Virus record (IMG/VR): IMGVR_UViG_2534681998_000004
Strand: one strand, 5' to 3'
Origin: a virus
Taxonomy: Duplodnaviria > Heunggongvirae > Uroviricota > Caudoviricetes
DNA: 4,386 bases
Shown: one piece after another, positions 3,039 to 4,386 of the stretch
Layout of the letters: every line of letters begins with the position of its first letter
Position numbering within the stretch: position 1 is the first letter of the stretch
Notes under the pieces: generated by a model
The model's database searches: none
What the model was told of the DNA's origin: nothing
What the model saw: the letters and a program-made list of their open reading frames with translations, nothing else
Made by a program: the position numbers and the translations under genes

Positions 3039-3596
3039 ATGACCACTATTACCAAAGATCGACTGCTGACAATCCAGCATTGGCGCGAAACATACGGACC
3101 GGGTAGCAACGTTGTGCTTCCAGCAGAAGAAGCGGAAGAGCTGGCACGGATTGCGCTGGCATCACTGGCAGCAGTATCGGATGAACGAGCAGCCTATGAA
3201 TTATTTATGGAGAAGCGTTTCGGAGAATCTGTAGATCGCCGCAGAGCAAAAAATGGCGATAGAGAATACATGGCATGGGATATGGCGCTTGGCTGGATTA
3301 TCTGGTGTCACCGCGCCGCCATGCTTCAGGCTGGAAACTTTCGGGAAAATAAGGGTTCGTCAACCAATAATTTTCGGATAATCTCGGAAACGTCAACCAA
3401 CTCTCCGGCAATCCCTGATGAGGTGTTGTCCGCAATCCTGAAGGTCGCCAGGCTTCGTGCAGATTTCGATGCTTCTGAAGTGGACAGGCGAGGTATCGGT
3501 AGTTGTCTGGATGAGGCCGAGCAAGAACTTATCGTTACCATTAACGAATACGCCAGTCAGATCGCAGTAGAAGCGACACAGGGGGAGAACCAATGA
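3039..3596 (+). CDS. Hypothetical prophage protein (185 aa)
   Basis: ATG at 3039 starts 2 nt after the upstream stop, with AAGGTGA at 3025-3031 at 7-nt spacing. Long ORF with balanced composition; stop TGA 3594-3596. Confidence 0.6.
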   Translation: MTTITKDRLLTIQHWRETYGPGSNVVLPAEEAEELARIALASLAAVSDERAAYELFMEKRFGESVDRRRAKNGDREYMAWDMALGWIIWCHRAAMLQAGNFRENKGSSTNNFRIISETSTNSPAIPDEVLSAILKVARLRADFDASEVDRRGIGSCLDEAEQELIVTINEYASQIAVEATQGENQ

Positions 3597-3670
3597 GCCG
3601 GCCAGATGCATTTGCAGGCGTTGCTATAGCTATTGCTTTTCTAGTATATGTTATTTGTCGGTGGGGGTAA
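3593..3670 (+). CDS. Candidate 25-aa hydrophobic peptide (MSRPDAFAGVAIAIAFLVYVICRWG), not in the ORF track
   Basis: ATG 3593 overlaps the upstream stop as ATGA; GGGGGAGA at 3581-3588 gives about 4-nt spacing; stop TAA 3668-3670. Single predicted TM-like segment. Too short for statistical support; hand-translated. Confidence 0.3.
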   Translation: MSRPDAFAGVAIAIAFLVYVICRWG

Positions 3671-3705
3671 AAACGTTCGCCGGGATTCACACCAAGGGAG
3701 GGAAT

Positions 3706-3810
3706 ATGTCGGATGATATTTCACTGGTAATGGAAGGCGCTCTGGCTGTTATTGCTGTTGTGGGTGTTTACTGCCTGGTTGTGTTTTTGATGGAGCGCCT
3801 GGGGAACTGA
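3706..3810 (+). CDS. Candidate 34-aa small membrane peptide (MSDDISLVMEGALAVIAVVGVYCLVVFLMERLGN), not in the ORF track
   Basis: ATG 3706 preceded by a strong purine-rich SD, AAGGGAGGG (3694-3702); stop TGA 3808-3810. One clear hydrophobic helix. Hand-translated. Confidence 0.4.
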   Translation: MSDDISLVMEGALAVIAVVGVYCLVVFLMERLGN

Positions 3811-3820
3811 ATTCATTCCG

Positions 3821-3836
3821 TATGGGAATTCCCATA
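3821..3836. repeat. 16-bp perfect palindrome TATGGGAATTCCCATA (possible operator or RNA stem-loop)
   Basis: Exact reverse-complement symmetry read directly from the sequence; lies between the 34-aa ORF stop and the candidate hok promoter. Confidence 0.5.
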
Positions 3837-3850
3837 TCGGGCAAAACGGT

Positions 3851-3878
3851 TTGCTGTAAAGCGAGAGTTAAGTAGAAT
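3851..3878 (+). promoter_or_regulatory. Candidate sigma70 promoter for the hok-like mRNA (-35 TTGCTG 3851-3856, 16-nt spacer, -10 TAGAAT 3873-3878)
   Basis: The -10 matches TATAAT at 5 of 6 positions, the -35 at 3 of 6. The predicted start near 3885 coincides with the 5' element that is complementary to the mRNA 3' end, giving a transcript of about 420 nt, as expected for hok-family mRNAs. Confidence 0.4.
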
Positions 3879-3881
3879 TGC

Positions 3882-3896
3882 TGCGGGTGCTTGAGG
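3882..3896 (+). promoter_or_regulatory. hok mRNA 5'-end element complementary to the 3' end (fold-back inhibition, 5' partner)
   Basis: TGCGGGTGCTTGAGG (3882-3896) pairs with CCTCAACGCACCCGCA (4259-4274) over 15 bp with one bulged nucleotide; complementarity checked by hand. Confidence 0.5.
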
Positions 3897-3930
3897 CTGT
3901 CTGCCTCGGGCATGCCACCGTAAGGCAGAC

Positions 3931-4005
3931 AGAGAAAAGCCCCAGTTAACATTACGCGTCCTGCAAGACGCTTAACATTAATCTGAGGCCCAATCTATGC
4001 TTCAC
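3931..4005 (-). ncRNA. sok: Candidate Sok-like antisense RNA (antitoxin of a type I TA system); ends approximate
   Basis: Minus-strand candidate promoter: -35 TTGCCT (+4040..4035), 17-nt spacer, -10 TAACCT (+4017..4012), predicting a start near +4004. The transcript would be antisense to the mok start codon (3997-3999) and its SD (3985-3988), as in plasmid R1 hok/sok. No canonical terminator found; a U-rich run (complement of +3931-3939) is a possible 3' end. Confidence 0.3.
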
Positions 4006-4209
4006 AAACGTAGGTTAGCCTCTTACGCGCCGAAAGGCAAGGAGAAGCAGGTTATGAAGCAGCAAAAGGCGATGTTAATCGCCCTGATCGTCATCTGTTT
4101 AACCGTCATAGTGACGGCACTGGTAACGAGGAAAGACCTCTGCGAGGTACGAATCCGAACCGGCCAGACGGAGGTCGCTGTCTTCACAGCTTACGAACCT
4201 GAGGAGTAA
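3997..4209 (+). CDS. mok: Mok-like in-frame upstream reading frame (70 aa) that contains hok; analogous to the MokC arrangement as I recall it
   Basis: ATG 3997 with GAGG at 3985-3988 at 8-nt spacing; same frame as hok and the same stop. Whether it is translated as a separate product is inferred from the hok-family paradigm. Confidence 0.5.
   Translation: MLHKRRLASYAPKGKEKQVMKQQKAMLIALIVICLTVIVTALVTRKDLCEVRIRTGQTEVAVFTAYEPEE
4054..4209 (+). CDS. hok: Hok/Gef-family type I toxin (51 aa, small membrane peptide)
   Basis: ATG 4054 with AAGGAG at 4039-4044 at 9-nt spacing; stop TAA 4207-4209. The product MKQQKAMLIALIVICLTVIVTALVTRKDLCEVRIRTGQTEVAVFTAYEPEE has the Hok signature (TM helix, then TRK-x-LCE-x-R and EVAAF/EVAVF-x-AYE). 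From memory it is very close to E. coli HokD (RelF) and HokC (Gef). Confidence 0.85.
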   Translation: MKQQKAMLIALIVICLTVIVTALVTRKDLCEVRIRTGQTEVAVFTAYEPEE

Positions 4210-4258
4210 GAGACCAGGCGGGGGAGAAATCCCTCGCCACCGCTGATGTGTCAGGCAT

Positions 4259-4274
4259 CCTCAACGCACCCGCA
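4259..4274 (+). promoter_or_regulatory. hok mRNA 3' element complementary to the 5' end (fold-back inhibition, 3' partner)
   Basis: CCTCAACGCACCCGCA is complementary to 3882-3896 and sits immediately upstream of the terminator hairpin, as expected for the 3' partner of hok mRNAs. Confidence 0.5.
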
Positions 4275-4277
4275 CTT

Positions 4278-4304
4278 AACCCGCTTCGGCGGGTTTTGTT
4301 TTTT
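4278..4304 (+). terminator. Rho-independent terminator of the hok-like transcript
   Basis: Stem AACCCGC (4278-4284), loop TTCG, stem GCGGGTT (4289-4295), followed by TTGTTTTTT (4296-4304). Confidence 0.8.
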
Positions 4305-4386
4305 CCTGGCATTCTGGTTTACAATTCGCACGCCAGCCTGAACAACTGGCACCTGCTGCGCCAGCAGAGACAACCGATGGCGCACG

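Follow-up and report, generated by a model that had tools for sequence, protein, structure and literature searches.

Probable tac/fbi fold-back helix in the mRNA of a hok/mok/sok-type cassette from an Escherichia coli O157:H7 prophage

The stretch of DNA analysed here (the window, 4,386 nucleotides, from a Caudoviricetes virus record) carries a hok-like gene whose presumed messenger could pair its own two ends. The locus thus raises the question of whether this pairing is the fold-back inhibition described for hok mRNAs, and whether it belongs to a regulated toxin-antitoxin locus rather than to a fossil. We consider it very probable that 3882–4304 encodes the hok mRNA, that this gene belongs to a complete type I toxin-antitoxin cassette (hok/mok/sok, of the hokD/hokW type) carried by a lambdoid/Rac-like prophage of E. 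coli O157:H7, and that the 5'–3' complementarity is the tac/fbi fold-back helix of this family. The tac/fbi element is an ordinary feature of the hok family, already known and described in the 1990s. The value of the result lies mostly in the correct annotation of a complete hok/mok/sok cassette in an O157:H7 prophage.

The cassette is located in the early-right (nin) region of the prophage, which is Rac-like/lambdoid and carries racR, ydaT and P, and hok is co-oriented with P ... DUF968, RusA and Q in the early-right operon. The RefSeq name for the locus is hokD. O157:H7 prophage loci annotated as hokD are 99% identical to the window, and mokW/hokW/sokW of VT2-Sakai is 92% identical. The cassette is mobile among prophages and plasmids, with identities of 88–99%. 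The structured 5' UTR of hok mRNA is present in the window, as the full Rfam model RF01794 (1–157) matches 3885–4059 on the + strand with 114.9 bits (gathering score 59). The Hok reading frame scores 82.9 bits with Pfam PF01848 HOK_GEF (cut-off 22, E = 1.2e-23) and contains the conserved motifs TRK(D/S)LCE and EVA.F.AYE. The genes and signals of the cassette are as follows.

4054–4209, + strand: hok toxin gene, 51 aa, HokD/HokW type (Pfam PF01848 HOK_GEF; RefSeq hokD).
3997–4209, + strand: mok reading frame, 70 codons, from the ORF list; annotated as mokW or mok in VT2-Sakai and Rac-SA53.
3985–3988, + strand: mok Shine-Dalgarno (SD) GAGG, 8 nt upstream of the mok ATG, from sequence.
3935–4005, − strand: predicted Sok-type antisense RNA gene, ~71 nt, placed by homology to annotated sokW.
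4035–4040 (−35 TTGCCT) and 4012–4017 (−10 TAACCT), − strand: inferred sok promoter, with the same hexamers in hokW.

By definition, the mok frame overlaps hok from upstream and has a Shine-Dalgarno of its own, and the translation of hok is coupled to it. Both the frame at 3997–4209 and the GAGG 8 nt upstream were found, and the coupling itself is putative. The sequence GAGGC is invariant across 23 homologues. As mok is in frame with hok here, Mok is an N-terminally extended Hok, and proteins of this 70-aa form are frequent in the protein database. The predicted sok gene was placed from the sokW misc_RNA at 691–761 (−) of the VT2-Sakai locus (L002), in which position 641 is colinear with window position 3885. 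Its position and promoter hexamers are identical to those of the annotated, experimentally confirmed sokW, and the promoter scores under the threshold of the consensus scanner.

The ends of the transcript determine how much of the complementarity can form in the RNA, and the following features bear on them.

3851–3878, + strand: putative hok promoter, read from sequence, with −35-like TTGCTG at 3851–3856, a 16-nt spacer and −10 TAGAAT at 3873–3878.
3882–3884, + strand: UGC, extra bases of the 15-mer, complementary to 4272–4274 and probably upstream of the transcription start.
4272–4274, + strand: GCA, extra 3' bases whose complementarity is unconserved.
4278–4304, + strand: intrinsic terminator of the hok transcript, with a 7-bp stem, a UUCG loop and a T-run, present in the folds.

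The preliminary description had set the mRNA 5' end at 3882. The 3885–3896 part of that segment stands as a conserved core, but the sequence makes G3885 the more likely 5' end than T3882, because position 1 of RF01794 aligns there, TAGAAT ends 7 nt upstream, and the three outermost pairs are unconserved. These three pairs (alignment columns 1–3 with 66–68) are formed in only 52.8% of cells among 62 homologous loci, and the bases flanking the helix core vary freely. A start at G3885 would probably leave about 12 of the 15 bp inside the transcript, and we refine the paired core to 3885–3896 with 4259–4271. The hok promoter scores under the threshold of the consensus scanner; in the homologous hokC locus the matching −10 hexamer is TATAAT (alignment A3). 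At the other end, the terminator hairpin (4278–4295) and its T-run lie directly 3' of the complementary segment, in agreement with its earlier placement just upstream of a terminator. This is the sole terminator-like site within 3600–4386, and the whole window adds four weaker 5-bp sites.

The helix itself is readily verified. The segment 3882–3896 is TGCGGGTGCTTGAGG and 4259–4274 is CCTCAACGCACCCGCA (reverse complement TGCGGGTGCGTTGAGG). They form 15 Watson-Crick pairs, and C4265 on the 3' side is the only bulged base, exactly as first described, and the loop from 3896 to 4259 spans 363 nt where about 370 nt had been estimated. Two elements make up the core.

3885–3896, + strand: tac element GGGUGCUUGAGG at the 5' end of the hok mRNA (RF01794 position 1 = 3885), supported by folds, conservation and covariation.
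4259–4271, + strand: fbi element CCUCAA-C-GCACCC, paired with 3885–3896, with C4265 bulged.

These segments correspond to tac and fbi in published descriptions of hok mRNAs (PMC9841398; PMC2891591). The 15-mer pairs with the real 3' UTR (4210–4304) at −27.3 kcal/mol, compared to −15.3 ± 2.3 kcal/mol for 2000 dinucleotide shuffles of the same 3' UTR, none of which was as strong. The 12-mer that begins at the presumed +1 pairs at −21.1 kcal/mol, a value equalled by 3/2000 shuffles. Among background tiles of the window, 4/421 match the observed duplex energy, the strongest at −31.5 kcal/mol, a value that fits a perfect duplex; these four are taken to be overlapping minus-strand tiles over the reverse complement of the 5' segment. 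The helix is found in both the minimum free energy (MFE) and the centroid folds of 3882–4304 (−180.5 kcal/mol, z = −7.97) and of 3885–4304.

Further evidence comes from homologous loci, where covariation of the two segments had been proposed as a check. The covariation set contains 62 distinct loci from about ten genera (Escherichia, Kluyvera, Photorhabdus, Pantoea, Sodalis, Mixta, Erwinia, Enterobacillus and others). Its diversity was obtained from tblastn on plasmids and from a scan of genome contigs; a homology search with the Hok protein returned near-identical E. coli proteins only and added no diversity. The 12 bp from the inferred +1 (3885–3896 with 4259–4271) are conserved across the 62 loci. 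Pairing in the core helix reaches 99.2%, and 24 double-sided changes occur in it; the pair 3888/4268 is U-A in 33 loci, C-G in 24, U.G in 3 and unpaired in 2. In the true register 82% of cells are paired, which beats all slid registers (31–52%). With a bulge of 0–2 nt permitted, 5.55 of 6 pairs are retained in the lower helix, and there are matched variants such as GAGA/UCUC and CCUGAG/CUCAGG. In Sodalis and Mixta (5' CUCUGGAUC) the lower helix is entirely different and complementarity is kept. Scored in a fixed register (MAFFT alignment A2), 77.5% of lower-helix cells are paired, a figure held down because the Photorhabdus and R1-type loci are without the bulged C and therefore one column out of register.

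Since rescoring with an allowed bulge leans towards structure, a cognate-versus-permuted test and an unguided RNAalifold analysis were added. Cognate 5' and 3' partners have a mean energy of −21.5 kcal/mol versus −18.8 kcal/mol for permuted partners, and 0/5000 permutations are as low as the observed mean. The unguided RNAalifold consensus of 23 full-length transcripts recovers the long-range helix, in which one pair is U-A in 13, C-G in 9 and U.G in 1, with no broken pairs. The contrast in lower-helix pair counts (5.55 cognate versus 5.17 non-cognate, of 6) is weak because 5' UUGAGG is almost invariant, and it is not main evidence. Within the window's own sequence class the covariation is modest (cognate −21.5 versus non-cognate −21.1 kcal/mol) because 5' GGGUGC also pairs with GCGCCC-type fbi through G.U. 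Because ucb and the metastable hairpin, both described below, also constrain much of the 5' segment, its conservation cannot be credited to the fbi helix alone. At the level of sequence comparison, the concerted change of the two halves across genera shows selection on pairing in the hok family. The 62-locus set re-confirms the classic 1990s model with modern data, and it could guide compensatory-mutation work on hokW-type loci. For the plasmid hok variants L016 and L017 (no Rfam match), L088 (partial 5' UTR match only), L045 and L051, a blind 5'–3' complementarity scan gave weak duplexes only, at inconsistent positions and with −14 to −17 kcal/mol.

The transcript was folded in nascent, full-length and 3'-trimmed forms, in which tac is predicted to change partners: 3903–3913 in the nascent chain, fbi in the full-length RNA and ucb after 3' trimming. 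Four further elements take part.

3887–3913, + strand: predicted metastable 5' hairpin (3887–3897 with 3903–3913, 11 bp), which would sequester tac in the nascent transcript; in silico.
3937–3945, + strand: ucb/anti-SD box AAGCCCCAG, paired with the mok SD region in the full-length RNA and with tac after 3' trimming.
4018–4022, + strand: dcb box GCCUC, paired with the mok SD region in the trimmed and family consensus folds.
4217–4238, + strand: GC-rich 3' UTR hairpin GGCGGGGGAGAAAUCCCUCGCC, present in all folds, with compensatory changes (columns 373–394).

The 5' hairpin appears in the MFE folds of nascent chains of 26–48 nt, the 11-bp form in those of 31–48 nt, and its kinetic persistence is putative; a metastable structure with the corresponding role is part of the R1 hok mRNA as outlined in PMC9841398 and PMC2891591. 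In the full-length fold, 3939–3945 pairs with 3983–3989 and the mok SD is masked. With the 3' end at or before 4250, 3937–3943 pairs instead with 3885–3891, and ucb is off the mok SD, which pairs elsewhere; at 4250, 3985–3989 is paired with 4018–4022. The Rfam consensus structure pairs the ucb segments likewise, and the SD/dcb helix (columns 130–134 with 165–169) is formed in 22–23/23 sequences of the family consensus. Removal of fbi alone (3' end 4258) produces no flip, as a weaker substitute helix with 4249–4258 forms and the SD is still masked. The switch thus needs trimming to ~4250 and not just the loss of fbi, so that the real processing site matters. With this proviso, 3' trimming in silico reproduces the R1 switch to the tac-ucb stem. 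By analogy with the role of the last stem-loop of Tr-hok in R1, as presented in PMC9841398, the 4217–4238 hairpin is predicted to be the 3'-terminal protective stem-loop of the processed mRNA. A reading of the 3' UTR (4218–4299) as an independent Hfq-binding sRNA, for which a sub-threshold isrK match (27 bits versus 50) and the processed 84-nt PasA gave leads, was ruled out: PasA is encoded between the esterase and holin genes and so away from hok, and the isrK score is no better than chance.

These features can be arranged in a mechanism modelled on the published R1 scheme of tac/fbi, ucb, dcb, 3' processing and a metastable hairpin, as set out in PMC9841398 and PMC2891591. Transcription would begin at about G3885, and in the growing chain the 5' end would be held in the local hairpin of 3887–3897 with 3903–3913. 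Upon completion of the 3' UTR, GGGUGCUUGAGG (3885–3896) is predicted to pair with CCUCAA(C)GCACCC (4259–4271), closing the ~420-nt RNA into a compact form. In this form ucb (3939–3945) would lie on the mok SD region (3983–3989), and ribosomes as well as Sok RNA would be excluded if it functions as in plasmid R1. Slow 3' exonucleolytic trimming, again as in R1, may then remove the terminator and fbi back to the hairpin at about 4217–4238. Northern blots of hokW did show shorter RNAs, whose relation to the R1 truncated form was explicitly left open (PMC8621323). The freed 5' end would take ucb (3937–3943), which in the folds leaves the mok SD, giving what is by the R1 model the translatable form. 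As long as the prophage is present, Sok, antisense to about 3935–4005, would bind the trimmed RNA and RNase III would destroy the duplex. Upon loss of Sok, mok and then hok would be translated and the membrane toxin could act.

The locus resembles hok/mok/sok (parB) of R1 in the order of its elements: promoter, tac at +1, metastable hairpin, ucb, mok SD, antisense Sok, dcb, hok, 3' hairpin, fbi and terminator. In both, the whole 5' UTR fits one Rfam model and the 5'–3' helix is at the homologous place, R1-type loci pairing GGCGCUU with AAGCGCC. The refolding predicted upon 3' trimming agrees with PMC9841398. However, the Hok proteins are only about 41–44% identical, and mok is in frame with hok in the window, whereas in the R1-type locus L015 it is a separate overlapping ORF in another frame (annotated DUF5431). 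The window helix has U-A where R1 has C-G, an extra outer G-C pair, and a bulged C instead of the internal G-G mismatch of R1. R1 is a plasmid, and the window is part of a prophage. Homology, covariation and folding together support the fold-back inhibition that was originally suggested, with the folding part resting on models.

Could the complementarity be inherited and functionless, in a recent or decaying copy that has had too little time to decay? The fbi element can clearly persist without a partner. K-12 hokD (relF), downstream of relBE, encodes the identical HokD protein (L023), and in K-12-type hokD (L023, L028) fbi and terminator are 100% identical within an identical 3' UTR, but the whole 5' UTR with tac, ucb, mok and sok is gone, so that fbi is left unpaired where the window has both ends. 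The locus L022 keeps fbi opposite a decayed, uncompensated tac. In K-12 hokC (gef), conversely, IS186/IS421 inserted just past the ORF has removed fbi, though intact hokC loci of other Escherichia pair tac GGGUGCUUGAGG with CUUCAACGCACCC. Moreover, identity among E. coli copies says little on selection because the cassette moves between prophages and plasmids (88–99% identity). Chromosomal hokA, hokB and hokC showed neither post-segregational killing nor a rifampicin response in the summary given by bioRxiv 10.1101/2025.08.07.668861, so that the intactness of all elements is no proof of the classical phenotype. Against a fossil stand the covariation of the tac and fbi halves across genera and the state of the window, where the hok ORF, the mok ORF and its SD, ucb, dcb, the sok promoter hexamers, tac, fbi and terminator are all intact, unlike K-12-type hokD and L022. 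The closest characterized relative, hokW-sokW (mokW) of the Stx2 phage Sp5 / VT2-Sakai / 933W, is 92% identical in nucleotides over the cassette, shares identical tac and fbi (GGGUGCUUGAGG / CCUCAACGCACCC) and sok promoter hexamers, and is also carried by a lambdoid prophage. It is a type I TA pair by experiment, with hokW toxic and sokW an RNase III- and Hfq-assisted antitoxin (PMC8621323). The two differ at the Hok C-terminus (TAYEPEE in the window, VDYESEK in HokW), in the prophage (Rac-like/lambdoid with racR, ydaT and P, not Sp5), and downstream of fbi, where the window has the canonical terminator at 4278–4295 and the Sp5 copy diverges immediately. With these elements intact, the earlier preference for a regulated locus over a fossil is reasonable; the hok cassette here is apparently intact and regulated, not a K-12 hokD-like remnant, and we regard the functionless reading as very improbable.

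Two other readings accept a working cassette and assign the helix a different weight. The end-to-end helix may mainly shield the 5' end against attack by RNase E and pyrophosphohydrolase and slow 3' exonucleases, giving a long-lived mRNA pool, while translation is controlled mostly by ucb/SD pairing and Sok. In the folds the mok SD is indeed masked by ucb and not by fbi, and it is masked with the 3' end at 4258 although fbi is absent. The two roles are not really exclusive, however: in the models ucb stays on the SD only for as long as the 5' end has another partner, and the loss of fbi with its neighbours lets the 5' end capture ucb. In addition, the truncated RNA is the translatable, Sok-binding form in the R1 model as given in PMC9841398 and PMC8621323. 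Stabilization as the main role seems unlikely to us. Still less probable is that prophage control dominates, with hok made mainly on antiterminated early-right read-through during induction, defined ends absent and transcription colliding with the sok promoter, such that fold-back is largely irrelevant to the timing of Hok. The co-orientation of hok with the early-right operon favours it, as does the P-to-hok interval, which on the + strand has only two terminator-like sites, both weak (5-bp). On the other hand, the cassette keeps promoter-like signals of its own and a strong terminator, tac/fbi pairing and covariation are kept alike in prophage, plasmid and chromosomal settings, and an internal tac could pair with fbi even in a longer RNA.

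A related proposal retains the fold-back helix and wires the cassette to prophage induction. Antiterminated read-through from pR would make hok RNAs lacking native ends, which would need no processing, and would meet the sok promoter head-on, so that Sok falls. A timed burst of Hok would then aid lysis and phage release, and fold-back would mainly silence the constitutive hok transcript of the lysogen. We offer this as speculation that is on balance doubtful; if true, it would account for two observations on Sp5, the RecA-dependent loss of sokW and the production of HokW.

The predicted 5' end of the hok mRNA (3882-3896, TGCGGGTGCTTGAGG) and a segment of its 3' UTR (4259-4274, CCTCAACGCACCCGCA; reverse complement TGCGGGTGCGTTGAGG) form 15 Watson-Crick pairs with a single bulged C4265 and 363 nt between them, in agreement with the 15 bp, one bulge and distance of about 370 nt given in the preliminary description. 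When the 3' UTR was shuffled 2000 times with its dinucleotides preserved (mean -15.3, sd 2.3), no shuffle reached the duplex energy of -27.3 kcal/mol; for the 12-mer starting at 3885, 3 of 2000 reached its energy. The 423-nt RNA has a much more stable fold than its shuffles (z = -7.97), and the long-range helix is present in both the MFE and the centroid structures. The 5'-3' complementarity is genuine and no chance match. In the hok mRNA family this element is known as the tac/fbi fold-back; both its structure and its covariation are described in work citing Thisted 1995, Franch 1996/1997 and Gultyaev 1997.

Position 1 of the Rfam model RF01794 aligns with G3885, and a TAGAAT hexamer ends 7 nt upstream of this residue, where hokC has TATAAT. 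Among 62 distinct homologues, the outer three pairs (3882-3884 with 4272-4274) are standard pairs in just 52.8% of cells, and the next six pairs are formed in 99.2%. Based on the model alignment, the hexamer spacing and the poor conservation of the outer pairs, we conclude that the hok RNA probably starts at ~3885 and that the functional helix would be 3885-3896 (tac) with 4259-4271 (fbi), 12 bp plus the bulge. The mRNA 5' end previously predicted at 3882 is thus modified: some 12 of the 15 pairs would remain inside the RNA, with the outer three outside it. The probable start does not lie downstream of 3896, where it would have spoken against the fold-back.

The cassette in the window consists of the following elements.

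4054-4209, + strand: hok toxin ORF (Hok/Gef, PF01848, E = 1.2e-23)
In-frame ATG at 3997, 5' of hok, + strand: mok frame of 70 codons, with GAGG 8 nt before the ATG
~3935-4005, - strand: putative sok antisense RNA, position transferred from VT2-Sakai sokW
4278-4304, + strand: terminator hairpin of 7 bp with a T-run, directly after the 3' pairing segment

The equivalent of the mok frame is annotated as mokW or mok in VT2-Sakai and Rac-SA53. The VT2-Sakai locus is colinear with the window, 92% identical to it, and carries an annotated 71-nt antisense sokW, whose promoter hexamers (TTGCCT / TAACCT) are the same in the window. From 3885 to the hok start, RF01794 is matched end to end over 175 nt with 114.9 bits (gathering score 59). 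This match to a model named 'sok antitoxin' (3885-4059, + strand) lies on the hok-mRNA strand, not on the minus strand encoding the ~71-nt Sok; in effect, what the model describes is the hok leader, with the Sok target, the mok Shine-Dalgarno (SD) sequence and the stem between tac and ucb, a box at 3937-3945 able to pair with either the mok SD or tac.

Codon 47 of hok (UAC, 4192-4194, + strand; Tyr47) is located within CAG-CUUACGAAC-CUG (4187-4201), a small stem with a UACG loop that resembles the tRNA-Arg anticodon arm. The surrounding UUACGAA motif is invariant in 23 of 23 aligned homologues (alignment columns 342-348). TadA A-to-I editing at the equivalent codon, changing Tyr to Cys, is reported in a recent preprint for the hokC, hokD and hokE mRNAs (bioRxiv 10.1101/2025.08.07.668861). 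The sub-threshold match of 4218-4299 (+ strand) with isrK, an sRNA that binds Hfq (27.2 bits against a gathering score of 50), reflects the hairpin-spacer-terminator layout of the hok 3' UTR. The same segment was ruled out as the processed prophage sRNA PasA, which lies between esterase and holin genes.

To evaluate covariation, loci were gathered from E. coli genomes, phages and plasmids (19) and from one-genome-per-species contigs (79), with the 5' end placed by a 5' UTR profile and the 3' side by the hok stop codon. Alignment A2, in which the 5' 19 nt are joined to 3' UTR +35 to +80, was built without reference to structure. The window structure imposed on A2 is paired in 82.4% of cells, compared to 31-52% in every slid register, and double-sided changes number 48 against 22.4 ± 4.8 in shuffles, with 0 of 500 shuffles as high. 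The clearest covarying pair, 3888/4268, is U-A in 33 loci, C-G in 24, U.G in 3 and unpaired in 2. The lower helix is shifted in register on A2 in loci without the bulge; when a bulge of 0-2 nt is permitted, a mean of 5.55 of its 6 pairs is formed. Matched variants of the lower helix are GAGA/UCUC in Kluyvera and Photorhabdus, GAAG/CUUC in Citrobacter and CCUGAG/CUCAGG in Enterobacillus, and Sodalis and Mixta keep complementarity with a wholly different lower helix, 5' CUCUGGAUC with 3' GAUCCAUGAG or AAGAUCUGCGAG. Over the 11 distinct 5' sequence classes, pairing with the cognate partner has a mean energy of -21.5 kcal/mol versus -18.8 ± 0.7 with permuted ones, and the cognate mean was reached by 0 of 5000 permutations. 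Unguided RNAalifold of 23 full-length transcripts also predicts the long-range helix (U-A 13, C-G 9, U.G 1, 0 broken). The covariation is confined mainly to a few positions of the helix, the 5' segment being nearly invariant because it has other pairing partners as well, and the independent evolutionary events behind the counts are estimated, without a tree, to be few, at least two or three.

Degraded relatives serve as natural controls. The K-12-type hokD loci downstream of relBE (L023, L028; 385-860) have fbi and terminator 100% identical to the window, with the entire 5' UTR gone. L022 (385-860) has kept fbi, but its 5' end, GACUGCAUGUGG, carries four uncompensated changes and its ucb has indels. 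All three are natural fossil hok loci. As fbi is retained in them without an intact 5' partner, its presence does not by itself prove function. In K-12 hokC (L003, ~740-1138) and in a hokD-type locus on an IncHI1B plasmid (L010, ~660-960), IS186/IS421 sits ~25 nt after the hok stop and has replaced the GC-rich 3' hairpin and fbi; the identical junction sequence suggests recurrent insertion at one spot 3' of hok. Unlike in these loci, every element is intact in the window, which agrees with the earlier view that the locus is not a fossil.

In the predicted fold of the full-length RNA (3885-4304), the 5' end pairs with 4259-4271 and ucb (3939-3945) with the mok SD region (3983-3989). When the 3' end is cut to 4250, 4240 or 4230, the MFE structure switches: the 5' end pairs with 3937-3943, a stem that the Rfam consensus also shows, and ucb leaves the mok SD. 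The SD region then pairs with the box dcb (4018-4022) at 3' end 4250, a helix also found in the family consensus fold (RNAalifold), and with 3999-4004 at shorter lengths. Removal of fbi alone (3' end 4258) causes no switch, a weaker substitute helix with 4249-4258 being formed; therefore the actual processing site matters. Nascent chains of 26-48 nt fold into a local 5' hairpin, 3887-3897 with 3903-3913. These three predicted states correspond one to one to structures described for the plasmid R1 hok mRNA, the metastable one, the inert one of the full-length RNA and the active one of the truncated RNA (PMC9841398; PMC2891591). We propose that the nascent 5' end would be held in the local hairpin, that tac-fbi pairing with ucb on the mok SD would follow in the full-length RNA, making it translationally inert as in R1, and that 3' processing of the R1 type would let tac take ucb and release the mok SD, with access for Sok expected by analogy. 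The fold-back interpretation put forward before is supported by the in silico pairings together with the covariation. Hok toxicity and Sok antitoxin activity have been shown only for hokW-sokW, 92% identical to the window cassette, whose shorter RNAs were left uncharacterised (PMC8621323).

The element is already known, with nothing new in kind, and mokW/hokW/sokW annotation of prophage copies dates from the VT2-Sakai and 933W genomes. Compared to R1, the window subtype has mok in frame with hok, U-A instead of C-G at the same helix position, one additional outer G-C pair, and a bulged C in place of an internal mismatch; all four differences are inside the known variation of the family. VT2-Sakai hokW (L002, 1025-1070), the copy studied experimentally, diverges from the window (4272-4304) directly after fbi and does not have its AACCCGCUUCGGCGGGUU terminator. 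The primary hokW transcript may end elsewhere, which would change the length of the 3' tail available for processing.

A single less ordinary reading is left for this locus, and it concerns the prophage setting. All sizeable ORFs of the window are on the + strand. An O157:H7 E. coli prophage, 99% identical over 96% of the window's length, has the matching order racR, ydaT-like, DnaT-like, replication protein P, DUF1627, DUF4406, DUF4752, ead/Ea22-like and DUF551, followed by a 34-aa hypothetical protein, hokD, DUF968 and RusA; in a related prophage the order extends to Q. This annotated gene order places the complementarity, which spans the gene annotated as hokD, in the early-right (nin-like) part of a lambdoid/Rac-like prophage. 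Although co-oriented within the early-right operon, with replication genes on one side and rusA/Q on the other, the cassette carries promoter-like signals and a terminator of its own. Late-gene activation would have to read through the hok terminator, and early-right transcription would run head-on against the sok promoter. Because of this co-orientation, antiterminated read-through at induction might circumvent the fold-back and also disturb the sok promoter; if true, this could explain the RecA-dependent sokW loss reported for the Stx2 prophage Sp5.

Directly 5' of the hok promoter are two small hydrophobic ORFs, 3593-3670 (+ strand, 25 aa, MSRPDAFAGVAIAIAFLVYVICRWG) and 3706-3810 (+ strand, 34 aa, MSDDISLVMEGALAVIAVVGVYCLVVFLMERLGN), the latter labelled hypothetical protein in RefSeq; a Pfam search with both products gave no match. 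The cassette is widespread: of 5426 complete E. coli genomes, 4066 carry a copy covering at least 80% of 3840-4320, as do 74 phage records and 254 plasmid records. E. coli-type hokD or R1-type hok contigs filed under Veillonella, Acinetobacter, Xanthomonas, Ferruginibacter, Streptomyces and Oscillibacter (L029, L039, L046, L089, L090, L091) most likely stem from contamination by, or mis-binning of, plasmid or prophage DNA of enterobacteria.
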